A stretch of 64,000 nt of DNA, taken from the NCBI GenBank assembly GCA_036785375.1, contig JAWMAR010000070.1, positions 4,836,001-4,900,000 of the forward strand. The letters run 5' to 3'. Source of the stretch: Leucoraja ocellata (taxonomy: Eukaryota). Position 1 is the stretch's first letter. Each line of letters starts with the position of its first letter. The translations under genes and the position numbers were made by a program. Below the pieces are notes generated by a model. It saw only the letters and a list, made by a program, of their open reading frames with translations. It had not been told where the DNA came from and did no database searches. Below are positions 3,435 to 62,686 of the stretch, in pieces.

Positions 3435-3531
3435 ATGGCGGTGGGACAGGGAGAATTCACCCACCAGAGACGGCCCAGATCCAGGGGAACAGTCGCTCTG
3501 TTGGTTCTTGTCGCTGTTGGTCTCACACCAG
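3435..3531 (+). CDS. Gene A leader exon MAVGQGEFTHQRRPRSRGTVALLVLVAVGLTP(G)
   Basis: ATG in acATGg context; basic n-region then hydrophobic h-region; phase-1 donor CAG|gtaaat. It joins the V exon start GSRG, which completes the signal peptide. Confidence 0.85.
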
Positions 3532-20396: not shown

Positions 20397-20493
20397 ATGG
20401 CGGTGGGACAGGGAGAATTCACCCACCAGAGACGGCCCAGATCCAGGGGAACAGTCGCTCTGTTGGTTCTTGTCGCTGTTGGTCTCACATCAG
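20397..20493 (+). CDS. Gene B leader exon
   Basis: Paralog of the A leader, ends ...VGLTS G|gtaaat. Confidence 0.85.
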
Positions 20494-23400: not shown

Positions 23401-26400
23401 ACAAGCAACTGGCTATTCAGCTTTAGTAAAACACAAAGTGCTGGAGTAACACTGCAGCTCAAGCTGCATCACTTGGTGACTTTAGAGACTTTAGAGATGC
23501 AGCACGGAAACAGGCCCTTTGGCCCATCAAGTCCACACCGTCCAGCGATCACCTGGCACACTAACACTATCCTACACACGAGGAACAAATTACAATTTTA
23601 ACGAAAGCCAATTAACCTACAAGCCTGCCCGTCTTTAGAGTGTGGGAGGAAACCGGAGCACCTGGAGAAAACCCACGCTGTCACGGGGAGAACGTACAAA
23701 CTCCGTACAGACAGCACCCGAGGTCAGGATGAAACATGTGTCTCTGGTGCTACCCATGTGCCACTGTGCCACCATGTCTCTACCCGTAACATTACCTATC
23801 CATGTTCTCCAGCGATTTTACCTGACCCGCTGAGCCATCACAGGCAGCTGGCTATTCAGCTTAAGTGCTGGAGTAAATCAGCAGGTCAGGCAGCATCTCT
23901 GGAGAACATGGAGAGGTTTGAGACCTGAATGAGGGGAAGGCTATTTAGGACTCGGATGAGGTAAAACCTTTTCACTCAGAGAATTTCTCTTTCTCCAGAA
24001 ATAGTTCCTGACCCGTTGAGTTACTCCAGCACTTTGTATCCTTTTGTGTATTAACCAGCATCTGCAGTTCCTTGTTTCTACAAGTTCAATGGGGAAGTGT
24101 GTTGTGGTGAGATTGAACACAGAGTGGGTCAGAGTGAGTGACAGGTTGGCTTCCTGTCACATGACCACCACTCAGGTCAAGCCACATCCACAGGGAAGGA
24201 GGATCTGGGCGCCAGGTAGATTCAGGAGCAGTTCTGCTTTCACTGGAACTTGGGGAACAATCCCGGTGAAATGGGAATTAACACCAGCAGGAAAAGCATT
24301 AAAGTGCAACTGGATCTATAGGGTGATTTCACGAAAGGTCACTGGAGCGTAGATCCGCACCCACGTGACCTAAAATCTCAAGTGGCGGACATGCTAGACA
24401 TCCGGTACATGTTAGTGGATGGGAAAACACGCACTTTCCCACCCGTTAAAAACATAGAATACGGCCAGGTTTTGATCTGCAATTTATTGTGCCAGTCGGG
24501 GTGACCGTGAGGCACAGCTACCTAGATTTACAGTCAAAAAAAAAAGATAGAAACTAAGGGAAATTAAAGAGGGAGCTGAAGGTGCCAATCCAGCGGAAGT
24601 GAACAGCGGACATTTGCCGTGGAGATTTAAAGGTCCAAAATATCGGGAATTATCGCGTTTGGTCACTGAATTTCATCAAAAGTAAGTCAATAACACAAAA
24701 GAAGAGAGACACAAACTGCTGGAATAACTCAGCGGGACAGGCAGCATCTCTGGAGAGAAGGAATGGGTGAGGGAACATCACCCGTCGGTTTCTCCAGAGA
24801 TGCTGCCTGTCCCGCTGAGTTACTCCGGCACTTTGGTGGAAACCAGCACCTGCAGTTCCTTGCTACACATGATCTATGCGGAATCATGAACCTGTCTGAA
24901 CAGCACAAATGACAAGTTTTTTATTGTTAAATCTCAGCTTGTGTTGCTGCAGTGTGAGTGATCTTTCATCATTAATGTGCCCACATGTCACACCCACCAC
25001 ACACAACCCCTGAAAAAGGATCCCAACACTATACATCGTGTATTCATTCCTTCCACAGATGCTGCCTGACCTGCTGAGTTACTCCAGCACTATGTGTTTT
25101 GCTCAAGATTCCAGCACCTGCAATTCCTTGTGTCTCACAAACGTTAGTGATTCATGAGCTCAGTTTATTGTTGTCGTCTGTACTGAGGTACAGGGAAAAG
25201 CTTTTACCATGTTTCCAATGAGGGCCAAGTCATTGGGTATTTTTAAGGTGGAGATTGACAGGTTCTCCATTAGTACGGGTGTCAAGCAATATGGGGAGAA
25301 GGCAGGAGAATGGGGTTGAGAGGGGGAGATAGATCAGACGTGATTGAATGGCGGGGTAGACTCAATGGGCCAAATGGCCTAATTCTGCCCCTATCACTTA
25401 TGAACTTGTGAACTAAGAATCCTCATGAGATGAGTGATATAGACTTTACACTGAGTCACACAAACTGTACAAGATGAGATACTCAACGGGTCGGGCAGCT
25501 TCTGTGGAGAGAGAACGAGAGTTAATGTTTTTAGGTAGATACTTCCAACCAAATTGCATTATTTCCAATTCAGTCCGCGTAATGAAAATAGTCCATGGAT
25601 CCTCCCGCTCCCAAGTTCTTTTCCTGTGTAGAAGACATGGGCCTAACTCTAGCAGCAGGCAGATAACACAGCCCGTGGGACTCTGAATGGCATGAAAGAA
25701 GTCTCTGAATGCTTGTAACCGTCTGGTGGTATCACAAAGTGCTGGAGTAGGTCAGCAGGTCAGGCAGCATCTCTGGAGAACATCGATAGGTGACGTTTTG
25801 GGTTGAGACCTGAATAAGGGGGTGGCCAGGTGGGGATAAACCTTTTCACCCAAAGTTGCGAATCTGTAGAATTCTCTACCACAGAGGGCAGTGGAGGCCA
25901 ATTCACTGGATGTATTCAAGAGAGAGTTAGATTTAGCTCTTAGGGCTAATGGAATCATGGGATAACGGGAGCAAGCAGAACTGGGCAGTGCCGGCTCGAA
26001 GGGCCGAATCGTCTCCTCCTGCGCCTATTTTCTATGTTTATATGTTTTTATGAATCATCATCTATCCACTTTCTCCAGAGATAGTTCCTGTCCAGTCTAA
26101 GGTTGTGACCTCAATAACGGGTAGGCCATTGAGGACTCAGATGAGGAAATATCTTTTCACCCAGAGAGTTCCTCTTTCTCCAGAGATAGTTCCTGTCCTG
26201 TTGTGTTACTCTGGCACTTTGTGTCCTTTTGTGCATTAACCAGCTTCTGCAGTTCCATGTTTCGACTAGTTCAATGGGGAAGTGGGTTGCAGTGAGATTG
26301 AACACAGGGTGGGTCAGAGTGAGTGACAGGTTGGCTTCCTGTCACATGACCACCACTCAGGTCAAGCCACGCCCACAGGGAAGGAGGATCTGGGCGCCAG

Positions 26401-29400
26401 GTAGATTCAGAAGCAGTGTTCAAGAAGGATCTGCAGATGCTGGAAGATAGATATCACAGTGGAGTAGACAAAGTGTTCAAGAAGGAACTCAGTTCTGCTT
26501 TCACTGGAACTTGGGGAACAATCCCGGTGAAATGGGAATTAACACCAGCGGGAAAAGCATTAAAGTGCAACAGGATCTATGCAAAAGAAGAGAGACACAA
26601 AATGCTGGAGTAACTCAGCGGGACGGGCAGCATCTCTGGAGAGAAGGAATGGGCGGGGAAACATCACCCGTCGGTTTCTCCAGAGATGCTGCCTGGCCCG
26701 CTGAGTTACTCCAGCACTTTGTGTCTTTCTTTGGTGTAAACCAGCACCTGCAGTTCCTTTCTACACATGATCTATGCAAAACCATGAACCTGTCTGAACA
26801 GCACAAATGACATGTTTTTTACTGTTAAACCACAGCTTGTGTTACTGCAGTGTGAGTGATCTTTCATCATTAATGTGCCAACAGGGTCAAGGGGAATAAC
26901 TGGACCCGAGGAGGTGAGGGGAAAGTTGGGGCAGTCGGTCACTGTGGAATGTCCGTATGATCGGAAATACAAAGACAACGACAAGCTATGGAGTAAAGGT
27001 GATTATTTCCTTCCATCTTCTACCGTGGTTTCTACTGATCACCCACAACAAGGGAGAACATCGATGAGTGATGACAAAGCACAACGGATAGTTTCAGTCA
27101 CCATCAACAAGCTGGAGGAGAGTGATGAAGGACTCTACTGGTGTGTGATAGTAAAGGGAAAACATTCGCTCATTGAATCGGCCTCCATCTCATTGAATGT
27201 TTCTGAAGGTACGTTGCCGATCTCTCCTCACTCTCCCAGATGTGAAAATTCCAGCCTGTGAATTCCCGGCCTCGGTCCTGACGGTGACTCGGTGCCACAT
27301 CCCCGGGGGGTCGCGGTAAGGGGGTTGGGTGGATAACTCATTTACTGGGGTCCCGGCCCGTGGGGCCACACCAAGAGCTCACTGTCGCTGGAGCAATATG
27401 GGGGGGGGGGGGGCTGTCAGACACCAGCCCCACGGAAGGTCCCATCTACCGGCGGTTCTGTTGCTGACGGCTCATTTCCACGAAGACGATCGCTCCGGGA
27501 CCAGAACCTCTGCCGCCCCCTCACTGGGGCAGGTGGTGGGAAACCCGGGTGGAGATAGGAGTCAATGGGGGAGGGGGCAGGTTAGTAGAAGATACTTAAA
27601 ATTAGAGAACCAACGTTCAAACCGTTGGGTTGTAAACTACCTGAGCCCAATATGAGGTGCGGTTCCTCCAATTTGCATGTGGCCTCACTCTGGCAATGGA
27701 GGAGGCCCAGGACAGAAAGGTCAGTGTGGGAATGGGAAGGGACATGGACAGGGTTGGCAACCGGGAGATCAAGAATGGTCCCGACCCGAAAACCAGCACC
27801 TGCAGTTCCTTGCTACACATGATCTATGCGAAACCATGAACCTGTCTGAACAGCACAAATGACATGTTTTTTATTGTTAAACCTCAGCTTGTGTTACTGC
27901 AGTGTGAGTGATCTTTCATCATTAATGTGCCCACAGGGTCAAGGGGAATAACTGGACCCAAGGAGGTGAGGGGAGAGTTGGGGCAGTCGGTCACTGTGGA
28001 ATGTCAGTATGGTCAGGAATACACTGACAACAAGAAGCTATGGAGTAAAGGTTATTATTTCACACTATCTGAGACCGTGGTTTCTACTGATTACTCACCA
28101 CAAGGGAGAACATCGATGACTGATAACAAAACACAACGGATAGTTTCAGTAACCATCGACAACCTGCAGAAGAGTGATGAAGGACGCTACTGGTGTGTGA
28201 TTGTAAAGGGAATATTTTCAAGCGATGAAAGGACCTCCATCTCATTGACGGTTTCTGAAGGTACGTTGACGATCTCTCCTCACTCTCCCAGATGTGAACA
28301 TTCCAGCCTGGGAATTCCCGGCCTCGGTCCTGACGGTGACTCGGTGCCACATCCCCGGGGGTCGGGGTGAAAGAGGGGGGAGCACATTTACTGGGGTCCC
28401 GGCCCATGGGGCCACACCAAGAGCCCACTGTCCCAGGAGCAGTGTGTGTGTGTGGGGTGTGGGGGGGGCTCATCAATGGGGACCGGCGGTTCTGCTGCTG
28501 GCGGCTCATTTCCCCAAAGACGATCGCTCCGGGTCCAGAACCTCTGCCGCCCCTCACTGGAGCAGGGGAACAGCCAGAACCTCTGGTGCCCCCTCACCCT
28601 CTCCCCCTGCCCGTCACTGTCACACCCACCACACACACATCTGAAGAAGGGTCCCAACCTTAAGCATTGTCAGTTCATTCCTTCCACGGATGCTGCCTGA
28701 CCTGCTGAGTTACTCCAGCACTTTGTGTTTTGTTCAAGATTCCAGCACCTGCAATTCCTTGTGTCTCACAAACTTTGGTGATTCATGAGTTCAGTTTATT
28801 GTTGTCGTCTGTACTGAGGTACAGGGAAAAGCTTTTACCATGTTTCCAATGAGGGCCAAGTCATTGGGTATTTTCAGGTGGAGATTGACAGTTTCTCCAT
28901 TAGTACGGGTGTCAAGTGATATGGGGAGAAGGCAGGAGAATGGGTTTGAGAGGGAGAGATAGATCAGCCATGATTGAAAGGCGGAATAGACTCAATGAGC
29001 CAATGGCCTCAATCTGCCCCTATCACTTATGAACTAATGAACTAAGAATCCTCAAGAGATGAGTGATATAGACTTTACACTGAGCCACACAAACTGTACA
29101 AGATGAGATACTCAACGGGTCGGGCAGCTTCTGTGGAGAGAGAACGAGAGTTGATGTTTCAGGTAGATACCTCCAACCAAATTGCATTATTTCCAATTCA
29201 GTCCGCGTAATGAAAATAGTCCATGGATCCTCCCGCTCCCAAGTTCTTCTCCAATGTAGAAGACATGTGCCTAACTCTAGCAGCAGGCAGATAACACAGC
29301 CTGTGGGACTCTGAAGGGCATGAAACAAGTCTCTGAATGCTTGTGACAATCTGGTGGCATCTTAGTGGGTGAGCTTCCGGTCTAGATCAAGAGGCTTGGT

Positions 29401-30339
29401 CCATCTATGGTGGCCTCAGAAGGATCTTTGCTCAAATCTCTGGATTGGGATTTGAACCCAGGAATCTCCCCACACAGAGCAAGAGCACTCCCGACTGAGG
29501 CATCTCCCACACATCACTAAAGTGGCACAGAATGTGATTTCACACATTTAATGTTCAAAAACTTCATTCACTTTATCTCCACAAGGATCTCAAACAAGCC
29601 GCCCAGACATGGTCAGCACCACCTCTACAACAATAAGCACAAAGGCTTCCACCACAACTCGGACCACCATGCCTCAAGATGCACCAACCACCGAGGCAGC
29701 AAGTTCCACTGAGTCTCATGGTTCAACACCTCCAAACAGGTTAGTAACTCGAAGAGCCAACTCAGCCTCACCTGAGAACAAATTAGTTCAGTTCAATTCA
29801 GCTCAGTTTAAAGATACAGCGTGGAAATGGGCCCTTTGGCCCACCGAGTCCGCTCTGAGCAGCGATCACCCCATACACCAGTTCTGTTTTACACACTAGG
29901 GGCAACTTACTACAAACCCGCACGTCTTTGGAATGTGGGAGGAAACTGGAGAACCCAGAGTAAACTCTTGCGATCACAGGGAGAACGTACAGACTCTGCA
30001 CTGACAGCACCGGTATCAGGATCGACCCCGCGTCTACTGTGCTGTGAGGCAGCAACTCTACCGCTGAGCTGACATCTCAATGGGCGAGCCTCATGTCTAC
30101 ATCAAGGGGCTTGGTCCATCTATGGTGGCTTAGGAAGGATCCTTGCTCAAATCTCAGGTTTGGGATTCGAATCAAGAATCTCCCCACACAGAGCAAGATC
30201 GTTCCGAACTGAAGCATCTCCCACACGTCACTAAAGTGACACAGAACGTGATTATAAATATTTAATGTTCAAAGACTTCATTCACTTTATCTTCACAAGG
30301 GTCTCAAACATATCACCCAGATATCCTCACCACTTTGGT

Positions 30340-30370
<31 letters not shown>

Positions 30371-32744
30371 GGGGGTTGCACGGTGGCGCAGCGGTAGAGT
30401 TGCTGCCTTACAACGCATGTAGCGCTGGAGACCCAGGTTCGATCCCGACTACAGGTGCTGCCTGTACGGGGTTTGTACGTTATCCCCATGACCGCATGGG
30501 TTTTCTCTGAGATCTTTGATTTCCACCAACACTCTAAAGACATACAAGTATGTAGGTAGATTGGCTTGGCGTATGTGTCAATTGCCCCTAATGTGTGTAG
30601 CCTAGTGTTAGTGTGCGAGAATCGCTGGTCGGTGTGGACTCCATGGGCCGTCGGGCCTGTTTCCGCGCTATATCTCAAAATTAAACTAAACTGGATTAAA
30701 ATATGGTCACCACCACCTCAGGAACCACCACACCCACTCTGCCTCCGGAAGCATCGACCACCAGGGGCTCCTGGTTCATCGCCTCGACACAGGTTGCTTC
30801 TTATCCCTCTGTGGTCTATGATTATCGTACTATCCAAAATGATACAATGTTGGTGTAATCTGTAAACTCGTAAATCATACTTCCAACATTAACATCTAAG
30901 GCTGGCAGATGGGACTAGTGTAGATAAGGACATAATGGTCGGCAATGGGGAAATTGGGTCAAAGGACATGTTTTCGTGCTCTATGTCTGACCATCAAAAT
31001 GAACATCTAAGTTGTTAATGCATGTAGTCATGGAACACCTCTAAGGAATGGGTGCATGTTGCGATATCAACATCTCACCAATGTCCACGCCAAAACCTTG
31101 GAGCACACTGAATGATTCCGTGTGCAATATGATGAAAGAAAATTGCCAGCGTTGATCTGTGATAACTCTGTGTGGAAGTAATAATATTTCCTTGGATTTC
31201 CAGGGACACCATGCTGAACATCGTTTGCCGTGTTTGGGGTGTGTTACGCTGGGTACTCTTTGGAATTCTGCTTCTCTTCCCGGTTTCCATCAGCTGTGTG
31301 ACAACTTTGAAAAGGTGAAAGTTTGCAATCTCTTCACTCTGATGTTCACATTAAATTCAACTGGAAATGATGGGAATTTACTTTAGAATTGTAGAGATAA
31401 AGTGTGGACATACAGTGCCCTCCATAATGTTTGGGACAAAGACCCTTCATTTATTTATTTGCCTCTGTATTCCACAATTTGAGATTTGTAATTGAAAAAA
31501 TCACATGTGGTTAAAGTGCACATGGTCAGATTTTATTAAAGGGTATACAGCCAATCAAGTCCGCGCCGACCAATGGTCACCCCGTACACGCGCACTATCC
31601 TACACACGAGGGACAATTTACAATTATACAGAGGCCAATTAACCTACAAAACTACACGTCTTTGGATTGTGATAAGAAACCGGAGCACCCGGATAAAACC
31701 CACGCTGTCACAGGCAGAACATACAAACTCCGTACAGACAGCACCCGTAGTCATGATCAAACCCGGGTCTCTGACACTGTAAGGCAGCAACTCTACCGCT
31801 GCGCCACTGTGCCGTCTGGGTCATTTCCTCGGGTAAACTTTGATGGTGGAGATTATAACTTGTGTTTTAATTGTTATTCAAGGAAAAAAACAGCCAAGAC
31901 CTTGGAGATGGGGTCGGCAGTGGTGGAGGAAGGAGAGGAACAGCGCCGGTGAGCTGGCTGGGTGAGGCCTCACCTCGCATGGAGACGGCCGTGGGAGGCG
32001 AGGGGAAAAGGGTGCGTTGGTGGGTCGAGGTGTGGGCAGAGTGCGAGTGGGCTGCTGGAGGCCCTGCAGCAGCCGGTGGATCGGGTGCCGCTGGAGGTCA
32101 CACAGAGGTCGGGGACGAGCGCGCGGATCGGACACGGCCTGCAACGGCACGGAGCGGTGGTGGAGGCACCGACAACATCGCCAGGCCAGGCCGACCCCTG
32201 CAACTCCCACCCAGTGCCGTCTCCATGACAACGGGCCTTTAAGCCCAAAATAAAATGGGCCTTTAAGCCCAATTTTATATTTAAGAATATAAGATACTGC
32301 CAGTAATGTGGCAACTCTTGTGTACTGCATCATATAATCTGCTATTAATACTCTTGTTCTTAGCTTCAGCTGTGCTTATATAAAGTAAGATTTTTACTGA
32401 ATTCTATACAAAAGAAATGTCACTGTACGCATGTGCATGATACAATAAAGTACCATTGAACCATTGAACAATGGGGATATAAAAACGGTTAAATGATTAC
32501 GTATTGAACTGTGGACACGCGTTAGAAGAATAAGATAAAAATTAAGGGTAATCGTTATATCAATATTGTTATTCTGACGGAATGACGCCCAATAATCATC
32601 GTTTAGCTTTTCAGGGCCAGAGAGGGCGTTCACCAGTTGGAGATGTACAAATCTCATCACCTTGACCCTACAACATCACCACACCACACCTATGTCCAAT
32701 CTACCTTGACCGCTACAGGAGGAATTTCTTTAGCCAGAGGGTGA
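20397..32744 (+). CDS. Gene B: paralogous two-V receptor, 379 aa, join(20397..20493,26885..27208,27937..28260,29586..29739,31204..31314,32615..32744)
   Basis: Same exon set and phases; 1140 nt open; no L1 in the V2-stalk intron. Confidence 0.85.
22170..23339 (-). mobile_element. 5'-truncated non-LTR retrotransposon (CR1/L2-group RT) with an uninterrupted 357-aa RT C-terminal ORF
   Basis: LDFSKSFD, GTPQGTVLGP, LFADD, RPHLDYA; (ccaagaa)n tail; inserted into an older repeat at 'aactc'. Confidence 0.88.
23940..25735 (+). pseudogene. Empty V-cassette relic in gene B intron 1
   Basis: Pre-V1 intron sequence fused to post-V2 intron sequence at 24985/24986. Confidence 0.75.
26885..27208 (+). CDS. 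Gene B Ig V1 exon (type alpha)
   Basis: AG/GT bounded, 324 nt, V-set motifs. Confidence 0.95.
27937..28260 (+). CDS. Gene B Ig V2 exon (type delta)
   Basis: AG/GT bounded, 324 nt, DEGRYWC. Confidence 0.95.
29586..29739 (+). CDS. Gene B stalk exon (4 codons longer and more Thr-rich than A/C)
   Basis: GSQTSRPDMVSTTSTTISTKASTTTRTT...; phase 1 to 2. Confidence 0.8.
31204..31314 (+). CDS. Gene B transmembrane exon
   Basis: DTMLNIVCRVWGVLRWVLFGILLLFPVSISCVTTLK. Confidence 0.85.
32615..32744 (+). CDS. Gene B putative cytoplasmic exon (extended C-terminus ...TYVQSTLTATGGISLARG*)
   Basis: Paralog of the A tail exon; the A/C stop is absent, so it reads into the adjacent CR1-derived sequence. Confidence 0.5.
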
Positions 32745-40126: not shown

Positions 40127-40223
40127 ATGGCGGTGGGACAGGGAGAATTCACCCACCAGAGATGGCCCAGATCCAGGGGAACAGTCGCTCTGTTGGTTCT
40201 TGTCGCTGTTGGTCTCACACCAG
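40127..40223 (+). CDS. Gene C leader exon
   Basis: MAVGQGEFTHQRWPRSRGTVALLVLVAVGLTP G|gtaaat. Confidence 0.85.
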
Positions 40224-43200: not shown

Positions 43201-46200
43201 AGAGAAACAAAATGCTGGAGTAACTCAGCGGGACGGGCAGCATCTCTGGAGAGAAGGAATGGGTGAGGAAACATCACCCGTCGGTTTCTCCAGAGATGCT
43301 GCCTGTCCCGCTGAGTTACTCCAGCTCTTTGTGTCTATCTTTGGTGTAAACCAGCACCTGCAGTTCCTTGCTACACATGATCTATGTGAAACCATGAACC
43401 TGTCTGAACAGCACAAATGACATGTTTTTTATTGTTAAACTGTGTTTGTGTTACTGCAGTGTGAGTGATCTTTCATCATTAATGTGCCAACAGGGTCAAG
43501 CGGAATAACTGAACCCGAGGAGGTGAGGGGAGTGTTGGGGCAGTCGGTCACAGTGGAATGTCAGTATGGTCAGGAATACAGTGACTACAGGAAGCTGTGG
43601 AGGAAAGGTGATTCTTACCAGAAATCTTATATTGTGCTTTCTACTGATGACCAACGACGAGGGAGAACATCGATGACTGATGACAAAGCACAATGGATAG
43701 TTTTAGTCACCATCGACAACCTGGAGAAGAGTGATGAAGGACTCTACTGGTGTGTGATAGTAAAGAGAAACGATTCACCCATTGAATCGACCTCCATCTC
43801 ATTGACGGTTTCTGAAGGTAAGTTGCCGATCTCTCCTCACTCTCCCAGATGTGAAAATTCCAGCCTGGGAATTCCCGGCCTCGGTCCTGACGGTGACTCG
43901 GTGCCACATCCCCGGGGGGTCGCGGTAAGGGGGCTGGGTGGATAACTCACTTACTGGGGTCCCGGCCCGTGGGGCCACACCAAGAGCTCACTGTCCCAGG
44001 AGCAATATGGGGGGGGGGGACTGTCAGACACCAGCCCCACGGAAGGTCCCATCTACCGGCGGTTCTGTTGCTGACGGCTCATTTCCACGAAGACGATCGC
44101 TCCGGGACCAGAACCTCTGCCGCCCCCTCACTGGGGCAGGTGGTGGGAAACCCGGGTGGAGATAGGAGTCAATGGGGGAGGGGGCAGGTTAGTAGAAGAT
44201 ACTTAAAATTAGAGAACCAACGTTCAAACCGTTGGGTTGTAAACTACCTGAGCCCAATATGAGGTGCGGTTCCTCCAATTTGCCTGTGGCCTCACTCTGG
44301 CAATGGAGGAGGCCCAGGACAGAAAGGTCAGTGTGGGAATGGGAAGGGACATGGACAGGGTTGGCAACCGGGAGATCAAGAATGGTCCCGACCCGAAAAA
44401 GACACCTATCCATTTTCTCCAGAGATTCTGCCTGATCCGCCGAGTTACTCCAGCACTTTGTGTCTATCTTTGGTGTAAACCAGCACCTGCAGTTCCTTTC
44501 TACACATGATCTATGCGAAACCATGAACCTGTCTGAACAGCACAAATGACATGTTTTTTATTGTTAAACCTCAGCTTGTGTTACTGCAGTGTGAGTGATC
44601 TTTCATCATTAATGTGTCCACAGGGTCAAGGGGAATAACTGGACCCAAGGAGGTGAGGGGAGAGTTGGGGCAGTCGGTCACTGTGGAATGTCCGTATGGT
44701 CAGGAATACATTGACAACAAGAAGCAATGGAGGAAAGGTTATTATTACACACTATCTGATACCGTGGTTTCTACTGATGACCCACCACAAGGGAGAACAT
44801 CGATGACTGATGACAAAACACAACGGATAGTTTCAGTAACCATCGACAACCTGGAGAAGAGTGATGAAGGATACTACTGGTGTGTCATAGTACGATGGAA
44901 CTTCAGTGAAAAGACCTCCATCTTATTGACGGTTTCTGAAGGTACGTTGACGATCTCTCCTCACTCTCCCAGAGGTGAACATTCCAGCCTGGGAATTCCC
45001 GGCCTCGGTCGTGAGGGTGACTCGGTGCCTCATCCCCGGCGGTCGTGGGGGGGGGGGGGGGGGGAGCTCATCAATGGGGACCGGCGGTCCTGCTGCTGGC
45101 GGCTCATTTCCCCAAACACGATCGCTCCAGGACCAGAACACATGGTGCCCCCTCACTGAGACGGGGGGGGGGGGGGGGGGAGAGATCTGCCCCCTCACCC
45201 TCTCCCCCTGCCCGTCACTGTCACACCCACCACGCACACAACATCTGAAGAAGGGTCCCAACCTTAAACATCATCTATTCATTCCTTCCACGGATGCTGC
45301 CTGACCTGCTGAGTTACTCCAGCACTTTGTGTTTTGCTCAAGATTCCAGCACCTGCAATTCCTTGTGTCTCACAAACTTTGGTGAATCATGAGCTCAGTT
45401 TATTGTTGGCGTCTGTACTGAGGTACAGGGAAAAGCTTTTACCATGTTTCCAATGAGGGCCAAGTCATTGTGTATTTTCAGGTGGAGATTGACCGGTTCT
45501 CAATTAGTACGGGTGTCAAGCGATATGGGGAGAAGGCAGGAGAATGGGGTTGAGAGGGAGAGATAGATCAGCCATGATTGAAAGGCGGAATAGACTCAAT
45601 GGGCCAAATGGCCTCAATCTGCCCCTATCACTTATGAACTAATGAACTAAGAATCCTCATGAGATGAGTGATATAGACTTTACACTGAGTCACACAAACT
45701 GTACAAGATGAGATACTCAACGGGTCGGGCAGCTTCTGTGGAGAGAGAACGAGAGTTAATGTTTCAGGTAGATACCTCCAACCAAATTGCATTATTTCCA
45801 ATTCAGTCCGCGTAATGAAAATAGTCCATGGATCCTCCCGCTCCCAAGTTCTTCTCCAATGTAGAAGACATGTGCCTAACTCTAGCAGCAGGCAGATAAC
45901 ACAGCCTGTGGGACTCTGAAGGGCATGAAAGAAGTCTCTGAATGCTTGCGACAATCTGGTGGCATCTTAATGGGTGAGCCTCCGGTCTAGATCAAGAGGC
46001 TTCGTCCATCTATGGTGGCCTCAGAAGGATCTTTGCTCAAATGTATGGATTGGGATTTGTACCCAGGAATCTCCCCACATGGAGCAAGAGCGCTCCCGAC
46101 TGAAGCATCTCCCACACATCACTAAAGTGGCACAGAACGTGCTTTCAGACATTTTTTTTTTTTTTTTTTAATTTTATTTTTATTAGCAGTACAGTAAATC

Positions 46201-49200
46201 ACATTAATACATCGCATATATCTTATTACATTAAGTTGTACCACTTCATTTTTTGAGCTTTAAAAGAGAAAGAAATAAAAGAAGTAAGGAAAGTAAGCAA
46301 GAATCGTGAAGGTGCAGGAAAGTGTTGGGAGAAAAGAACCCCTTAGGGAAGGAATTAGAGAAGGAAGCAAAGAAAATAAATAAGACCCTAGAAAGGAAAG
46401 AAAAAAAAGGAAAAAAGGAAAGTCAGTCGCTCTATTGTAACACAAAACTCCGCAAAAAAGGATATACCAACCATGTTTTTATTAAAAATGTATTTTATAC
46501 CCCCCATTACCAGGTCCTGGTAGCCTTTATATTTTAATTTATTATTGCACCTTAGCTTGTAATAGTTCCATAAATGCAGACCACGTCTTTTGGTAGTGAT
46601 CTGCTTTACCTGCTAGGAGGAGTCTCATCTCTTCCAAGTGTAATGTTTCGAACATGTTTGAAATCCACATTTTTGTTGTTGGTATTGGAGCATTTTTCCA
46701 AAATTTAAGTATAAGCTTTTTTCTGATTATTAGCCCATAATTAAGTAAGTTCTTTTGAAACATATGTAATTCTGGGTTACCTTCCGATATTCCAAAAATG
46801 ATCCATTCTACTCTAGGTAGAAGTTTTGTTTTAAATAATTTTGTAAAGATTTCAAATATTTCATTCCAGAATTTTTGAATTTTTATACAGAAAACAAAAG
46901 AGTGCGCTATGTTAGCTTCTTGTACCTGACATTTATCACAAATGGGTGAGACATTGGGGAAGAGTTTATTTATTTTAGTTTTTGAATAATATAGTCTGTG
47001 TAATGTTTTATATTGGATTAGAGTATGTCGTACGTTGATCGAGCATTTATGCACATATAATAAGTGTTTATCCCAGCTCTCTTTTGAAATTTTTATAGCT
47101 AATTCTTGTTCCCAATCTCTTCTAATATTATCTGTTGTAGGTATTTCTATATTCAATATAATATTATATAAGTATGATATTAGATTTGCTGATTCAGCCT
47201 TTATCTTCATGGCTTCATCTAATAAGTCTGGGGGCATATTATAATAGTCTTTTGTATATTTTTTCAGATAATCACGGATTTGAAGATATTTAAAATATTG
47301 ATTATTTTTCAAGTTATATTTCAGTTGTAATTGTTGAAATGGTAATAATTTCCCTAATTCATACAGGTCTCCGAGCGTTTTGATTCCCGTTCTTTCCCAT
47401 TGTGTAAATGATTTATCTATAATTGAGGGTTTAAACGAAGGGTTATTGGCTATTGGCATTAGCAGAGATAGATTTCTTAATTTTAAGTTCTGTTTTATTT
47501 GTTTCCAAGTTCTAATTGTACTATGTATCATTGGATTTTTATTATAATATTTGTTATTCAAATTCGTTGGTGAGAGGAGAGTCGTGCCTGTATTACCAGG
47601 AGCGCAGTCCTCTCCCTCCATTATAATCCAGTCCACCTGCTGGGCAGAGTTGTCCAGCAGGTGAATCATATTTTTAATATTTACCGCCCAATTATAGTAC
47701 ATAAAGTTAGGGAGCGCTAGACCACCCATCTCTTTTGGTTTACTGAGGTGTGCTCTTTGTATTCTGTGGGATTTATAATCCCATATAAAGTTTGTGGTCT
47801 GAGTCGAATTTTTTGAAAAAAATTTTTGGAAGATATATTGGAATTGATTGAAATAAATATAGGATTTGTGGTAAAAAAAATAATTTTTATAGCATTTATT
47901 CGACCTATTAAAGACATCGGCAGCGTTTTCCAGAATTTAATTAGATTGTTTAATTTCTTAAGTAAGGGGCTATAATTAGCATTAAACATACCGTGGTAAT
48001 TTCTAGTGATTTCAATTCCTAAATATTTAAATTTTTCTGTAGCTATTTTAAAGGGGAATTTCAAAAGATGTGTTGAGTCTTTCGGTTTTATTGACATAAT
48101 TTCACTTTTGTTCCAGTTTATTCTGTATCCTGAGAAAGATCCGAAATCCTCGATTAGGTTTAATATGTTTGGTATACTGATTTGGGGTTTTGTGATATAT
48201 AGTAATACATCGTCTGCGTATAAGGATATTTTGTTATTTGAATGTTTTGTATTATACCCATAGATGTCAGGATGTGTTCTAATTTTTTCAGCTAAGGGTT
48301 CAATTACTAGAGCGAATAGTAGCGGTGATAATGAACACCCTTGTCTATTGCCCCTTGTTAATTGAAATTTCGTAGATAGTATATTATTAGTTAATATTCT
48401 AGCCGTGGGTTTGTTATATAATAATTTTATCCATGCGATAAAGCTCTCTCCCATTTGAAATTTTTGCAATACTTTAAACATATAATCCCATTCTACTTGA
48501 TCAAACGCTTTTTCTGCGTCCAATGAAATGATAGATTACTCTTGTTCTTGAGATTTGTGAGAGTGCATTATGTTAAGCAGACGTCTCAGGTTATTAAATG
48601 AGTGTCTCTTAGGTATAAATCCCGTCTGATCCTTATTTATTAATTTACTGACATATTGACTTAATCTTCTAGCTAGTATTTTCGCTAATATTTTTTGATC
48701 CGTATTTAACAATGCAATAGCTCTGTATGATCCTGGTTCTTCTATATCTTTATCTTTTTTAAGTATTAGTGTGATCGTTGATTCTGCTAGTGTTTCAGGT
48801 AAGATTTGTTCTTTAAAAGCAAATGTATACATTTTCTGTAGATGTGGGGTCACTGTATCGTAAAAACATTTATAAAATTCATTACTGAATCCGTCTGGTC
48901 CTGGTGTTTTTCCATTATTAAGTGTGTTTATTGTGTCTTCTATTTCCTTAGCTGTAATTTGTGCTCCCAGTTCCTCTTGTTCTTTCAATTCTAATTTTGG
49001 GAGGTTACAATCGGTCAAAAATTCTGAAGCTTTGTTATTGTCTATTAGCGTTTTCGATGTATATAAGTTCTTATAATATTGAGCAAATCTTTTATTGATA
49101 TCCTTAGGTAGTGTTAATAATTCCCCTCTATCTGATTTAATCTTTAAAATTATATGATCTTTTTCCCGTTTTTTCAATTGGCGTGCCAAAAGTTTATGGG

Positions 49201-51105
49201 GTTTATCCCCAAATTCAAAACATTCTTGTTTGGTAGTTTGGAATAATCTTATAATCTTCTCTGATAGTAATTTATTTAGCTTAAATTTCAGAATTAAAAT
49301 TTTGTTATGTTTATCCATAGTTGGATCTTTAGCATTATCTATATCTAGTTGTCTGATTTGTTCTTCTAATTGTCTTTGTTCATTTTTATTCTTTTTGTTT
49401 TGAAAAGCTTGATACGAGATAATGACTCCTCTAATAAATGCTTTGAAGGATTCCCATAATAAAGTAGGCGAAATATCTGGTGTATCATTTATCTCAAAAA
49501 ATAGATCCATTTGTTTTTTTAGATATATACTCCCTTGTGGGTCTTTCAAAATTTGCGAGTTAAACCTCCAGAACGATGTGTTCATAGAGATTCCTTCCAA
49601 TTTTAAAACAAAAGATAGCGGGGAATGATCTGAAATCGTATTAGTGTGGTATTTAGGGTTAAGAGTATAAGGGATTAGTTTTGAATCCACTAGGAAATAG
49701 TCTATGCGTGAGTATGTTTTATGCACCATTGAATAAAACGAGTATTCCCTTCCAGTCGGGTTCGCGATCCTCCAAACATCTGCTATATTTGTATTTTTTA
49801 TATATGTATTTAAGAGTTCACTAGTTTTAGATTTCCTATTACCTCTTTGTTTTTGCATCGATTTATCTAAATACGGATCTAAAGCACAGTTGAAGTCTCC
49901 TCCAATTATAACATTTTGGTAGTTAGATTCTGCGATTTTATTCAGAATTTTATTAAAAAATTGAGGATTATCAAAATTGGGCGCATATATGTTTACCAAG
50001 GTGATTGGCGTAGCATAAATCTCTCCTGTGACTATAAGGTATCTCCCTTCCTTATCTGATATAATATTCTTTGATTTGAATGGTATTCCTTTGCGAATAA
50101 TAATTGCGGTGCCTCTAGATTTCGATGTGTATGAGGAGTGAAATGTTTGGCCTATCCATTTCGCCCTCAATCTCATCTGGTCTTGATGTTTAAGGTGCAT
50201 TTCTTGAAGAAACGAAATGTCCGTGTTATATGATTTCAACTGAGCTAGCATTTTGCCCCTTTTAATTGGTTCATTACTACCCCTTATATTCCAGCTACAC
50301 AGTGTGATTCCTCCTTTAATGTCCAAAAACGTCATTCACTTTATCTCCACAAGGGTCTCAAACAAGCCGCCCAGACATGGTCATCACCACCTCTGCAACA
50401 ATAAACAGAAGGGCTCGGACCACCCTGCCTCAAGATGCACCAACCACCCGGGCGGCAAGTTCCACTGAGTCTCATGGTTCAACACTTCCAAACAGGTTAG
50501 TAACTCGAAGAGCCAACTCAGCCTCACCTGAGAACAAATTAGTTCAGTTCAATTCAGCTCAGTTTAAAGATACAGCGTGGAAATGGACCCTTTGGCCCAC
50601 CGAGTCCGCTCTGAGCAGCGATCACCCCATACACCAGTTCTGTTCTACACACTAGGGGCAACTTACTATAAACCCGCACGTCTTTGGAATGTGGGAGGAA
50701 ACTGGAGAACCCAGAGTAAACTCTTGCGATCACAGGGAGAACGTACAAACTCTGCACTGACAGCACCGGTATCAGGATCGACCCCGCATCTACTGTGCTG
50801 TGAGGCAGCAACTCTACCGCTGAGCTGACATCTCAATGGGCGAGCCTCATGTCTACATCAAGCGGCTTGGTCCATCTATGGTGGCTTAGGAAGGATCCTT
50901 GCTCAAATCACAGGTTTGGGATTCGAACCAAGAATCTCCCCACACAGAGCAAGATCGCTCCCAACTGAAGCATCTCCCACACGTCACTAAAGTGGCACAG
51001 AACGTGATTATAAACATTTAATGTTCAAAGACTTCATTCACTTTATCTTCACAAGGGTCTCAAACATATCACCCAGATATCCTCACCACTTTGGTGTGTG
51101 TGTGT

Positions 51106-51136
<31 letters not shown>

Positions 51137-53693
51137 TTGCACGGTGGCGCAGTGGTAGAGTTGCTGCCTTACAATGCTTGTAGCGCCGGAGACCCAGGTT
51201 CGATCCCGACTACAGGTGCTGCCTGTACGGGGTTTGTACGTTATCCCCATGACCGCATGGGTTTTCCCTGAGATCTTTGATTTCCTCCAACACTCTAAAG
51301 ACATACAAGTATGTAAGTAGATTGGCTTGGCGTATGTGTCAATTGCCCCTAGTGTGTGTGTAGCCTAGTGTTAGTGTGCGAGGATCGCTGGTCGGTGTGG
51401 ACTCCATGGGCCGTCGGGCCTGTTTCCGCGCTATATCTCAAAATTAAACTAAACTGGATTAAAATATGGTCACCACCACCTCAGGAACCACCACACCCAC
51501 TCTGCCTCTGGAAGCATCGACCACCAGGGACTCCTGGTTCATCGCCTCGACACAGGTCAGTGACTCAAAGTCCCAGTACTTTGAGAAAGCGTGGCTGATC
51601 ACATTCCAGTCCATTGATAAACACTCCTTGGCCCTGACTAAAGTCCCTCTGTCCTTAGTACACCCAGTGGCCCTACCATTGTGAATGTCTACCCTTACAT
51701 CATGCCAAAAACAAATAACGTCACACTTATCATGGTTCAATACCTGCTGGCATTGCTCTGCCCAACATACCAGTTGCTTCTTATCCCTCTGTGGTCTATG
51801 ATTATCGTACTATCCAAAATGAGACAATGTTGATGTAATCTGTAAACTCGTAAATCATACTTCCAACATTAACATCTAAGGCCGGCAGATGGGACTAGTG
51901 TAGATAAGGACATCTTGGTCGGCAATGGGGAAATTGGGTCAAAGGACATGTTTTCGTGATCTATGTCTGACCATCAAAATGAACATCTAAGTTGTTAATG
52001 TAGTCATGGAACACCTCCAAGGAATGGGTGCATGTTGCGATATTAACATCTCACCAATGTCCACGCCAAAATCTTGGATCACACTGAATGATTCCGTGTG
52101 CAATATGATGAAAGAAAATTACCAGCGTTGATCTGTGGTAACTCTGTGTGGAAGTAATAATATTTCATTGGATTTCCAGGGACATCGTGCTGAATGTTCG
52201 CCGTGTTTGGGGTGTGTTACGCTGGGTACTCTTTGGAATTCTGCTTCTCTTCCCGGTTTCCATCAGCTGTGTGACAACTTTGAAAAGGTGAAAGTTTGCA
52301 ATCTCTTTACTCTGATGTTCACATTAAATTCAACTGGAAATGATGGGAATTTACTTTCGATTTGTAGAGATAAAGTGTGGACATACAGCGCCCTCCATAA
52401 TGTTTGGGACAAAGACCCTTCATTTATTTATTTGCCTCTGTATTCCACAATTTGAGATTTGTAATTGAAAAAATCACACGTGGTTAAAGTGCACATTGTC
52501 AGATATTATTAAAGGGTATACAGCCAATCAAGTCCGCGCCGACCAATGATCACCCCGTACACTCGCACTATCCTACACACGAGGGACAATTTACAATTAT
52601 ACAGAGGCCAATTAACCTACAAAACTACACGTCTTTGGATTGTGGTAAGAAACCGGAGCACCTGGATAAAACCCACGCTGTCAGAGGCAGAACATACAAA
52701 CTCCGTACAGACAGCACCCGTAGTCATGATCAAACCCGGGTCTCTGGCGCTGTAAGGCAGCAACTCTACCGCTGCGCCACTGTGCCGCCCTGGGTCATTT
52801 CCTCGGGTAAAATTTGATGGTGGAGATTATAAACTGTGTTTTAATTGTTATTCAAGGAAAAAAACAGCCAAGACCTTGGAGATGAGGTCGGCAGTGGTGG
52901 AGGAAGGAGAGGAACAGCGCCGGTGAGCTGGCTGGGTGAGGCCTCACCTCGCATGGAGACGGCCGTGGGAGGCGAGGGGAAAAGGGTGCGTTGGTGGGTC
53001 GAGGTGTGGGCGGAGTGCGAGTGGGCTGCTGGAGGCCCTGCAGCAGCCGGTGGATCGGGTGCCGCTGGAGGTCCTGCAGAGGTCGGGGATGAGCGTACTG
53101 TTCGGACACGGCCTGCAGCGGCACGGAGCGGTGGTGGAGGCACCGACAACATCGCCAGGCCAGGCCGACCCCTGCAACTCCCACCCAGTGCCGTCTCCAT
53201 GACAACGGGCCTTTAAGCCCAAAATAAAATGGGCCTTTAAGCCCAGTTTGATGTTTAAGAATATAAGATACTGCCAGTAATGTGGCAACTCTTGTGTACT
53301 GCATCATATAATCTGCTATTAATACTCTTGTTCTTAGCTTCAGCTGTGCTTATATCAAGTAAGATTTTTACTGAATTCTATACAAAAGAAATGTCACTGT
53401 ACCCATGTGCATGAGACAATAAAGTATCATTGAACCATTGAACAATGGGGATATAAAAACGGTTAAATGATTACAAGTATTGAACTGTGGACACGTGTTA
53501 GAAGAATAAGATAAAAATGAAGGGTAATCGTTATATCAATATTGTTATTCTGACGGAATGACGCCCAATAATCATCGTTTAGCTTTTCAGGGCCAGAGAG
53601 GGTGTTCACCAGTTGGAGATGTACAAATCTCATCACCTTGCCCCTACAGCATCACCACACCACACCTATGTCCAATCTACCTTGACCACTTGA
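40127..53693 (+). CDS. Gene C: paralogous two-V receptor, 363 aa, join(40127..40223,43494..43817,44624..44941,50354..50495,52180..52287,53591..53693)
   Basis: Same exon set and phases; 1092 nt open; the TM exon has an in-frame 3-nt deletion. Confidence 0.85.
41652..41929 (+). mobile_element. Rex1/Babar-like LINE fragment, gene C copy
   Basis: Paralog of 4935-5232. Confidence 0.75.
43494..43817 (+). CDS. Gene C Ig V1 exon (type beta)
   Basis: AG/GT bounded, 324 nt. Confidence 0.95.
44624..44941 (+). CDS. Gene C Ig V2 exon (type gamma, identical to gene A V2)
   Basis: AG/GT bounded, 318 nt. Confidence 0.95.
46152..50317 (-). mobile_element. Same L1 insertion in gene C (ORF2 in three pieces: 599, 268 and 395 aa)
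   Basis: Identical position to the A copy; SWNIRG...SDH endonuclease, LYADD RT, C-terminal CDKC...H...C knuckle. Confidence 0.95.
50354..50495 (+). CDS. Gene C stalk exon
   Basis: Paralog of the A stalk, phase 1 to 2. Confidence 0.8.
52180..52287 (+). CDS. Gene C transmembrane exon (DIVLNVRRVWGVLRWVLF...)
   Basis: 108 nt, in frame; juxtamembrane Cys replaced by Arg. Confidence 0.85.
53591..53693 (+). CDS. Gene C putative cytoplasmic exon
   Basis: Paralog of the A tail exon, TGA at 53691-53693. Confidence 0.55.
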
Positions 53694-57342: not shown

Positions 57343-57439
57343 ATGGCGGTGGGACAGGGAGAATTCACCCACCAGAGACGGCCCAGATCCAGGGGAACAG
57401 TCGCTCTGTTGGTTCTTGTCGCTGTTGGTCTCACACCAG
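57343..57439 (+). CDS. Gene D leader exon
   Basis: Same peptide as the A leader; phase-1 donor. Confidence 0.85.
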
Positions 57440-60400: not shown

Positions 60401-62686
60401 TCATCTATCCACTTTCTCCAGAGATAGTTCCTGTCCAGTTTAAGGTTGTGACCTCAATAACGGGTAGGCCATTGAGGACTCAGATGAGGAAATATCTTTT
60501 CACCCAGAGAGTTCCACTTTCTCCAGAGATAGTTCCTGTCCCGTTGTGTTACTCCGGCACTTTGTGTCCTTTTGTACATTAACCAGCATCTGCAGTTCCT
60601 TGTTTCTACTAGTTCAATGGGGAAGTGGGTTGTAGTGAGATTGAACACAGGGTGGGTCAGAGTGAGTGACAGGTTGGCTTCCTGTCACATGACCACCACT
60701 CAGGTCAAGCCACGCCCACAGGGAAGGAGGATCTGGGCGCCAGGTAGATTCAGAAGCAGTGTTCAAGAAGGAACTGCAGATGCTGGAAGATAGATATCGC
60801 AGTGGAGTAGACAAAGTGTTCAAGAAGGAACTCAGTTCTGCTTTCACTGGAACTTGGGGAACAATCCCGGTGAAATGGGAATTATCACCAGCGGGAAAAC
60901 CATTAAAGTGCAACAGGATCTATGCAAAAGAAGAGAGACACAAAATGCTGGAGTAACTCAGCGGGACGGGCAGCATCTCTGGAGAGAAGGAAATGGGTGT
61001 GGAATCATCACCCGTCGGTTTCTCCAGAGATGCTGCCTGTCCCGCTGAGTTACTCCGGCTCTTTGTGTCTATCTTTGGTGTAAACCAGCACCTGCAGTTC
61101 CTTGCTACACATGATCTATGCGAAACCATGAACCTGTCTGAACAGCACAAATGACATGTTTTTTATTGTTAAAGCTCAGCTTGTGTTGCTGCAGTGTGAG
61201 TGATCTTTCATCATTAATGTTCCCACAGGGTCAAGGGGAATAACTGAACCCGTGGAGGTGAGGGGAGAGTTGGGGCAGTCGGTCAAAGTGGAATGTCAGT
61301 ATGGTCAGGAATACAAGGACAACAGGAAGCTGTGGACTAAAGGTGATTCTTACCAGAAATCTTATATTGTGGATTCTACTGATCACCCACAACGAGGGAG
61401 AACATCGATGACTGATGACAAAAAAGAACGGATAGTTTTAGTCACCATCGACGACCTGGAGGAGAGTGATGAAGGTCTCTACTGGTGTGTGATAGTAAAG
61501 AGAAACGATTCACTCATGGAATTGGCCTCCATCTCATTGAAGGTTTCTGAAGGTACGTTGACGATCTCTCCTCACTCTCCCAGATGTGAACATTCCAGCC
61601 TGTGAATTCCCGGCCTCGGTCCTGACGGTGACTCGGTGCCACATCCCCGGGGGTCGCTGTAAGGGGGTGGGGTGGATAACTCACTTACTGGGGTCCCGGC
61701 CCGTGGGGCCACACCAAGAGCTCACTGTCGCCGGAGCAATATGGGGGGGGGGGGGGGACTGCCAGACACCAGCCCCACGGAAGGTCCCATCTACCGGCGG
61801 TTCTGTTGCTGACGGCTCATTTCCACGAAGACGATCGCTCCGGGACCAGAACCTCTGCCGCCCCCTCACTGGGGCAGGTGGTGGGAAACCTGGGTGGAGA
61901 TAGGTGTCAATGGGGGAGGGGGCAGGTTAGTAGAAGATACTTAAAATTAGAGAACCAACGTTCAAACCGTTGGGTTGTAAACTACCTGAGCCCAATATGA
62001 GGTGCGGTTCCTCCAATTTGCATGTGGCCTCACTCTGGCAATGGAGGAGGCCCAGGACAGAAAGGTCAGTGTGGGAATGGGAAGGGACATGGACAGGGTT
62101 GGCAACCGGGAGATCAAGAATGGTCCCGACCCGAAAAGGACACCTATCCATTTTCTCCAGAGATTCTGCCTGATCCGCCGAGTTACTCCAGCACGTTGTG
62201 TCTGTCTTTGGTGTAAACCAGCACCTGCAGTTCCTTGCTACACATGATCTATGCAAAACCATGAACCTGTCTGAACAGCACAAATGACATGTTTTTTTAT
62301 TGTTAAACCACAGCTTGTGTTGCTGCAGTGTGAGTGATCTTTCATCATTAATGTGTCCACAGGGTCAAGGGGAATAACTGGACCCGAGGAGGTGAGGGGA
62401 GAGTTGGGGCAGTCGGTCACTGTGGAATGTCAGTATGGTCAGGAATACAGTGACTACAAGAAGCTGTGGAGTAAAGGTTATTATTACCGGTCATCTTCTA
62501 TCGTGGTTTCTACTGATGACCCACGACGAGGGAGAACATCGATAAGTGATAACAAAACACAACGGATAGTTTCAGTAACCATCGGCAACCTGGAGAAGAG
62601 TGATGAAGGACGCTACTGGTGTGCGATTGCAAAGGGAACATTTTCAAGCGATGAAAGGACCTCCATCTCATTGACGGTTTCTGAAG
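57343..62686 (+). CDS. Gene D (partial): leader 57343..57439, V1 61229..61552, V2 62363..62686; stalk, TM and tail lie beyond the window
   Basis: Intact leader and two V exons. The window ends at ...ttcactttatctcca, immediately before the stalk acceptor seen in A-C. Confidence 0.85.
58975..59635 (+). mobile_element. Rex1/Babar-like LINE 3' end in gene D intron 1
   Basis: LRRLRKAGL...FYRGTIESILT...LPSGKRYRS...SFFPQAIRL; (tactgaa)n tail. Confidence 0.8.
59638..60130. mobile_element. hAT-like non-autonomous element end (CAGGGCCGGCC...) with purine/pyrimidine-rich interior; terminus deleted in the A and C copies
   Basis: Terminal motif typical of hAT MITEs; partner TIR not found. Confidence 0.4.
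61229..61552 (+). CDS. Gene D Ig V1 exon (type beta)
   Basis: AG/GT bounded, 324 nt. Confidence 0.95.
62363..62686 (+). CDS. Gene D Ig V2 exon (type delta)
   Basis: AG/GT bounded, 324 nt. Confidence 0.95.

Follow-up and report, generated by a model that had tools for sequence, protein, structure and literature searches.

The question raised by this locus is how the V exons of neighbouring receptor genes came to share their sequence in a patchwork. The earlier note had attributed this to short gene-conversion tracts with any V exon as a donor. The window (the whole 64-kb stretch of DNA that was analysed) holds four tandem genes, A to D, each with the order leader, V, V, stalk, transmembrane segment (TM) and tail. 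The interval in question, 43494-43817 on the forward strand, is exactly one phase-1 V exon (preceded by cag and ending in GAAG before the donor gtaagt), namely the first V exon of gene C (C1), and it has seven sisters in the window. Gene C consists, all on the forward strand, of a leader exon (40127-40223), C1, which encodes a V-set domain lacking the second disulfide of CD300, a second V exon C2 (44624-44941) that is identical to A2, a Ser/Thr-rich stalk exon (50354-50495), a TM exon of putative activating type with an arginine in the membrane span (52180-52287, VWGVLRWVLF), and a short tail exon without tyrosine motifs (52837-52923, approximate limits from tblastn). In gene A the corresponding exons are the leader (3435-3531), A1 (6798-7121), A2 (7932-8249), stalk (~13660-13806), TM (~15479-15607) and tail (~16144-16230); those of gene B are at 20397-20493, 26885-27208 (B1), 27937-28260 (B2), ~29582-29740, ~31199-31327 and ~31863-31949. 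Gene D contributes its leader (57343-57439), D1 (61229-61552) and D2 (62363-62686), while its stalk and TM lie beyond the end of the window; all of these V exons are likewise on the forward strand.

A search of the animal's own genome returned 28 near-identical V exons, two to four per gene, with 21 in eight genes on the contig of the window (C70; genes P, Q, R, A, B, C, D and E) and 7 in three genes on a second contig (C1141; genes x, y and z). As the flanks of C1141 are 97.7-98.5% alike to those of C70 on both sides, C1141 is probably the other haplotype, carrying 3 genes and 7 V exons against 8 and 21; a single gene with a Tyr-motif tail stands last on both. Beyond the array, at C70:4932651-4938260, a unique flank compared with C1141 alternates between about 2.5% divergence and some 5.5 kb of near identity. 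Reading frame and splice sites are intact in 27 of the 28 V exons. The sole frameshifted one, E2 (C70:4917202-4917527, L038), is the middle domain of the Tyr-motif gene, and its frameshift may be either real or a sequencing error in a run of G. Seven of the eight C70 genes encode an Arg-bearing TM and a short tail, and the eighth a neutral TM and a tail with Tyr motifs. From what is known of the family, we take these to be activating and inhibitory forms, respectively, in a paired-receptor layout, and such an array would act as a paired-receptor cluster under pathogen pressure.

The V1 module of gene C (43285-43942, forward strand; the exon with ~210 bp of upstream and ~120 bp of downstream flank) shows 88% likeness to the V2 module (44414-45065), and this homology is a likely substrate for misaligned exchange. 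Each V module has SINE fragments at its 5' edge (e.g. ~43285-43370), and long G runs lie 120-200 bp downstream of V exons (e.g. 44009-44020 and 45047-45065); a role of either in duplication or breakage is possible. Between V2 and the stalk, genes C and A carry an AT-rich insertion of about 4.1 kb with a poly-T end (~46150-50300 and ~9460-13620, respectively), which looks like an antisense LINE; it is common to A and C and missing from B, so that A and C are sister units. The first intron of gene B (23918-24232 and 24696-25733) contains extra pieces of V1-upstream and V2-downstream intron joined without an exon, which would resemble a V1-V2 block stripped of its exons.

The C1 domain scores above the Pfam cut-off for V-set, its best sequence matches among solved structures (PDB) are pIgR and CD300f, and its predicted model (pLDDT 92) has the V-type strand order. 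The closest database proteins, at up to 84% identity (Leucoraja erinacea), are ‘pIgR-like’ and ‘CMRF35-like’ models of skates and rays. By sequence, the genes are predicted to encode type I membrane proteins that have a stalk and come in paired forms, activating and inhibitory. The array lies at the end of a cluster of MDIR-like exons of about 0.9 Mb (C70:3873298-4756510), in which at least 120 more distant CD300/MDIR-like V exons were counted (>120, a lower bound); one tested exon of this cluster matches MDIR3, MDIR5 and MDIR2 at 77, 73 and 68%, and further such exons occur at C1141:151879-362406. The cluster appears to be a large innate-receptor complex of the skate. The array V domains themselves are only 32-38% identical to MDIR V domains, and C1 only 32-37% identical to those of MDIR3, short of the high identity expected of MDIR proper (MDIR2/3/5), and their homologues are V-only, without the V-C2 modular layout. 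Skate MDIR2/3/5 share with the array the cluster and a similar TM segment (RWLLF in MDIR5), but the array genes differ in their long leader, in tandem V domains on a mucin-like stalk, and in the lack of C2 and of the second disulfide. Mammalian CD300 and pIgR resemble them, as judged from sequence, in the V domain, stalk and paired activating and inhibitory tails, but not in having 2-4 V domains per gene or in lacking the CC' disulfide. A synteny probe with the IL10 family gave no match, nor did its control probe, and the Tweety genes were found on contigs other than that of the array.

MDIRs, and the double disulfide of CD300 with the WC motif in strand C, are described in the available text of PMC3031540. 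The second (CC') disulfide is absent from all 27 in-frame local domains and present in the neighbouring MDIR-like exons; among homologues, stingrays have both cysteines and Narcine only the first. It is also absent in sawfish and half-kept in one Amblyraja domain, and the CC' loop (e.g. 43598-43640) is hypervariable in skates.

The strings and groupings quoted for the V exons in the earlier note are all present in the sequence. The alternation that it described along V1 is real and clustered but does not consist of micro-tracts: the 25 four-way informative sites of V1 and its donor read, in order, 18 that group A with B and C with D (AB/CD), 1 AC/BD, 3 AB/CD and 3 AC/BD, i.e. one AB/CD block of about 210 bp, a stray base within it and a switch to AC/BD. 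The block (43569-43777, forward strand), where C1 goes with D1 and A1 with B1 at 21 of 22 four-way sites, is densest at 43569-43659, which corresponds to the BC loop through the C'-D loop (residues 25-55 of the model); the FG loop is a second variable patch on the model. The lone AC/BD site, 43727, is the single base that separates LEKS from LEES. From 43779 the AC/BD pattern runs through the donor, gtaagt being found in A1 and C1 only, and continues in the intron at 43996, 44499 and 44693. This clustering of site order is significant in a runs test (P 0.012; 0.024 per codon; 5e-5 with introns).

The proposed exchange between C1 and D2 fared less well. The strings beginning cagtatggtcagg and tctactgatgacc do occur in C1 and D2 only, but as a conversion tract the shared stretch at 43553-43589 has a global P of 0.97 in a GENECONV-type test. 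The SDY stretch of C1 is matched also by P2, outside the window, and the RRG shared by C1 and D2 amounts to two CAA/CGA sites of CpG type. The string catcttcta.cgtggtt is indeed present in D2, as it is in A1 and B1, but what had been called alpha-like is mostly the majority state of both slot classes.

When exons are typed by their flanks, they fall into a first-slot and a last-slot class, plus hybrids. Three hybrids (P2, R2 and E2) have the upstream intron of V2 and the downstream intron of V1, and three others (P4, R4 and x3) part of the V1 upstream intron and a last-slot downstream intron; the clearest mixing of V1 and V2 is found in these single-crossover hybrid exons, outside the window. 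In the spacer between P3 and P4 a partial stalk exon is joined to a first intron. Such a partial stalk exon, its acceptor still intact, runs into a first intron between two V exons at C70:4785251-4785330 (L031), at 4824275 (L035) and in gene x; it would be what is left of a deletion by which two adjacent genes became one with three or four domains. The hybrid-flank exons and the P3-P4 spacer are products of crossover or deletion.

Genes A and C can be aligned over 16.9 kb with 349 substitutions, a background of 1.9%. There are 38 substitutions in the 324-bp V1 (about 6 expected, P 6e-19) and none in V2, and this A1/C1 block within sister units has the internal-tract form of interlocus gene conversion. 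For 33 of the 38, each of the two alleles is also found elsewhere among the copies (29 with only the nine first-slot donors). The same is true of 131 of the 244 covered A/C sites outside V1, which indicates that the introns exchange too. About 1.1 kb (44430-45551, forward strand) is free of A/C substitutions against that background, and this stretch may be due to recent long homogenisation, shared recent ancestry or local collapse of the assembly; of all features, the identity of A2 and C2 is the one that a collapse artefact could most readily explain.

P4 and x3, which lie on separate contigs and are one base apart, are a further mosaic. Their informative sites run in the order 14 R4-type, 13 P3-type, then 4, 7 and 1 (runs test P 1e-7 per base and 2e-5 per codon, the latter becoming 0.34 after correction for 13,800 triplets). 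They contain two internal tracts from the neighbouring domain, with the acceptor lineage resumed on both sides, as is characteristic of gene conversion. In the RefSeq Leucoraja protein P0005, domains 1 and 2 differ from gene x by 1 and 0 residues, and the third domain lacks both x3 tracts, which equal the second domain of P0005 (10p 7q 4p 5q 1p). The comparison offers a rare snapshot, before and after, of conversion between adjacent domains of one gene. A 3-bp insertion is common to P3, P4, R3, R4, E2, x2 and x3.

The idea that exchange is focused in the V exons was not borne out. Among nine first-slot modules (Q1 and y1 were left out of this comparison owing to flank deletions), incompatible pairs make up 0.51 of the site pairs upstream of the exon, 0.48 within it and 0.49 downstream, and since introns and exon do not differ in this respect, exchange appears to be general across the unit, with selection making it visible in the exon. 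Diversity in the same modules is 0.027 upstream, 0.096 in the exon and 0.017 downstream. By simple pairwise counts, uncorrected for recombination and excluding the frameshifted E2 (also left out of the protein tree), pN/pS is 1.87 over the exon and 1.7-5.6 in loop regions.

Of the possible explanations we favour germline conversion and unequal crossing-over between neighbouring copies under diversifying selection, and we consider it probable that this made the V-exon mosaics. Gene units and V modules that are 85-98% identical would misalign and recombine in the germ line. Resolution as a crossover would give hybrid exons and the gain or loss of domains and genes; a non-crossover would leave a conversion tract of tens to about 200 bp, occasionally about 1 kb. 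Such exchange would extend over the whole unit, introns included, and selection for varied binding loops would keep the mosaics visible. It is conspicuous in the V exons because the diversity of loop variants is about 4-5 times higher there.

In a single assembly a conversion and two close crossovers look alike. A first alternative dispenses with conversion: only unequal crossing-over and allelic recombination would have acted, on V alleles that were ancient and held in balance. A and C would have begun as alleles whose V1 lineages had diverged, and the mosaics with several switches would have accumulated through successive single crossovers. Several observations are in line with this. The hybrid exons show that crossovers happen, the AC/BD switch at 43779 carries on into the intron, the A-C background of 1.9% resembles the unique flanks of the contigs with their alternating blocks of ~2.5% and ~0%, and 23 differences separate P2 from x1 next to 4.5 kb of near identity. 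Nevertheless, P4/x3 would require four switches in about 200 bp, with both tracts matching the adjacent domain, and as the introns are kilobases long, the crossovers would have to pile up inside the exon. We regard crossing-over without conversion as unlikely.

A second alternative, with little exchange, takes in the case that the earlier note named as overturning its reading, point mutation recurring at a small number of selected sites, and extends it to CpG sites and to retained ancestral states. It accounts for LEKS/LEES (one base), for the two CAA/CGA sites of the RRG share and for the ‘alpha-like’ string of D2, and it is compatible with 34 of the 38 A1/C1 differences being scored as amino-acid-changing. 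A GENECONV-type test of our own, run on the eight exons and 120/80 bp of flank, gave a weak signal, with one of 28 pairs globally significant (A1-C1, 43705-43765, P 0.018) and none of the tracts that had been pointed out before; with silent sites alone, of which only 25-30 are polymorphic, none of the 28 pairs was significant, and this negative result also suits recurrent mutation. In a set of 25 exons (the 28 minus the near-duplicates x2, x3 and C2) 3 of 300 pairs were significant. A PHI-type test gave P 0.001-0.02 for the eight exons, 0.0003 for nine first-slot exons and 0.0002 for the 25 exons at 1-30 bp, the last losing significance at 6-40 bp (P 0.17-0.28). After Bonferroni correction, 3SEQ-type triplets numbered 6 of 336 (8 exons) and 31 of 13,800 (25 exons), and the best 8-exon triplet marks a block at 43569-43659 that separates C1 from A1.

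These figures were compared with simulations without recombination, in which per-codon rates were fitted on the ML tree and codons toggled among observed states only; this null holds no lineage-specific bursts, epistasis or co-evolving residues. For the 25 exons neither the triplet counts nor the near/far incompatibility ratio that had been observed was attained in any of 678 runs (the best single P was attained in 2%), and for the seven window exons the corresponding P was 0.003-0.012. Triplets confined to first-slot exons stayed within the null, being matched by 194 and 46 of 821 simulations, which counts against exchange. Overall, exchange among the V exons is supported, and recurrent mutation at selected sites is rejected overall and refuted as sole cause under that null; nor can it yield the shared 3-bp insertion, the hybrid flanks or the 1.1 kb of A/C identity. 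We give it little credence. Painting the exons with a copying model lowered mismatches from about 20 to about 8 per exon, with less gain and fewer switches than under the null (reached by 853 and 877 of 877 simulations). Because the painting performed no better than simulation, we rejected the tract lengths derived from it (median 52 bp) as evidence.

The same simulations bear on the donors. Cross-class triplets with a last-slot exon receiving from the first slot number 46 against a null mean of 1.5 (0 of 821 simulations), and those in the opposite direction 9 against 1.7 (18 of 821); the top cross-class tracts are all in the 5' two thirds of the exon. Most of the former have B2 as the backbone and may reflect the divergence of the B2 lineage itself. 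The class-diagnostic columns at 43743-43787, at the FG-loop end, are nearly fixed per slot class among non-hybrids, and opposite-slot donors contribute -4 and +11 log units to the copying model, below the null means of 45 and 49. That any V exon serves as a donor was therefore an overstatement, and cross-slot exchange likely exists but is limited. In the germline process that we favour, exchange would run mostly within a slot class, with crossing between first and last slots mainly affecting the 5' two thirds of the exon.

It is also improbable, to much the same degree as for recurrent mutation, that chimeric exons and the identity of A2 and C2 were produced during assembly or polishing from mixed reads of near-identical copies. 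The tandem units are 93-98% alike, A2=C2 over 1.1 kb is what local collapse would give, and no read record spans the stretch (4 of 24 runs were mapped, swamped by SINE repeats), leaving the phase of A1/C1 unconfirmed. Such an artefact would hardly have kept frame and splice sites in all V exons but E2, nor would it have produced P4 and x3 on separate contigs with a single base between them. Of six RefSeq Leucoraja domains, which contain only 0-3 unseen residues, four stand 7-16 residues away from whichever local domain is nearest, and for Rhinoraja as for Narcine the domains fall into a single supported clade of the species; this reassortment and these clades show that neither shuffling nor homogenisation is confined to this assembly. 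Run X1 yielded a contig of 148 bases that agrees with the A2/C2 exon at every position, a weak point in the same direction. RNA of another organism covered the exons at a depth of about 1-5 and 90% likeness, and is uninformative for this animal.

It is extremely unlikely that the mosaics arose by somatic, AID-driven templated conversion in leukocytes, as in the immunoglobulin genes of chicken and rabbit, a process that would let single cells display non-germline V domains as an antibody-like repertoire outside Ig/TCR and with which short tracts of templated appearance in the loop-coding V exons are consistent, because the mosaics are in genomic sequence and one is common to both contigs (P4/x3), 27 of the 28 exons are in frame inside genes rather than in an array of pseudo-V donors, no RSS was matched in 264 kb, and 7 of 38 private C/G changes in genomic sequence fall in WRC/GYW hot spots against a background of 17%, all of which points to the germ line.

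The mechanism itself is not new: the process is known in other vertebrate receptor clusters, and the new part is the little-studied batoid receptor subfamily in which it is found. The literature covered by our search contained no paper on gene conversion in a CD300/pIgR/MDIR-like family of cartilaginous fish. The results imply that a CD300/pIgR-like subfamily of these fish evolves in the manner of the KIR, Siglec, CEACAM and chicken BG clusters, with haplotypes that have different numbers of genes (8 vs 3) and of domains and with binding loops reassorted between copies, and the array genes are likely pathogen-facing receptors that are worth a ligand search. Besides the KIR clusters, gene conversion of chicken and rabbit immunoglobulin genes offers a familiar comparison. 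The paired receptors Siglec-11/16 and Siglec-5/14 are reportedly adjusted by conversion.

Chicken BG genes, according to the available portion of PMC4046983, include hybrid genes, change in copy number and have a scrambled V region (Phi test). As far as that source goes, they resemble the skate array in their tandem same-strand V genes, hybrids formed by unequal crossing-over or deletion, haplotypic differences in copy number and scrambling of V, but they belong to the butyrophilin family and have one V-like region per gene, whereas the skate genes also change their number of domains. For the paired CEACAM receptors of Xenopus, the excerpts of PMC5112662 describe conversion of the ligand-binding exon and fast non-synonymous change. 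To that extent, CEACAM and Siglec share with the skate genes conversion among activating and inhibitory V exons and rapid non-synonymous change on the CC'C''FG face; there, conversion is mainly homogenising and can be confined to the exon, whereas in the skate partial tracts reassort loops and introns exchange too. Short-tract interlocus gene conversion is described for the MHC in the accessible text of PMC12431779. The MHC differs from the skate receptors in family and function, but, within the scope of that text, is alike in having short tracts between loci in a polymorphic, selected exon that offers too few silent sites for a clean test.
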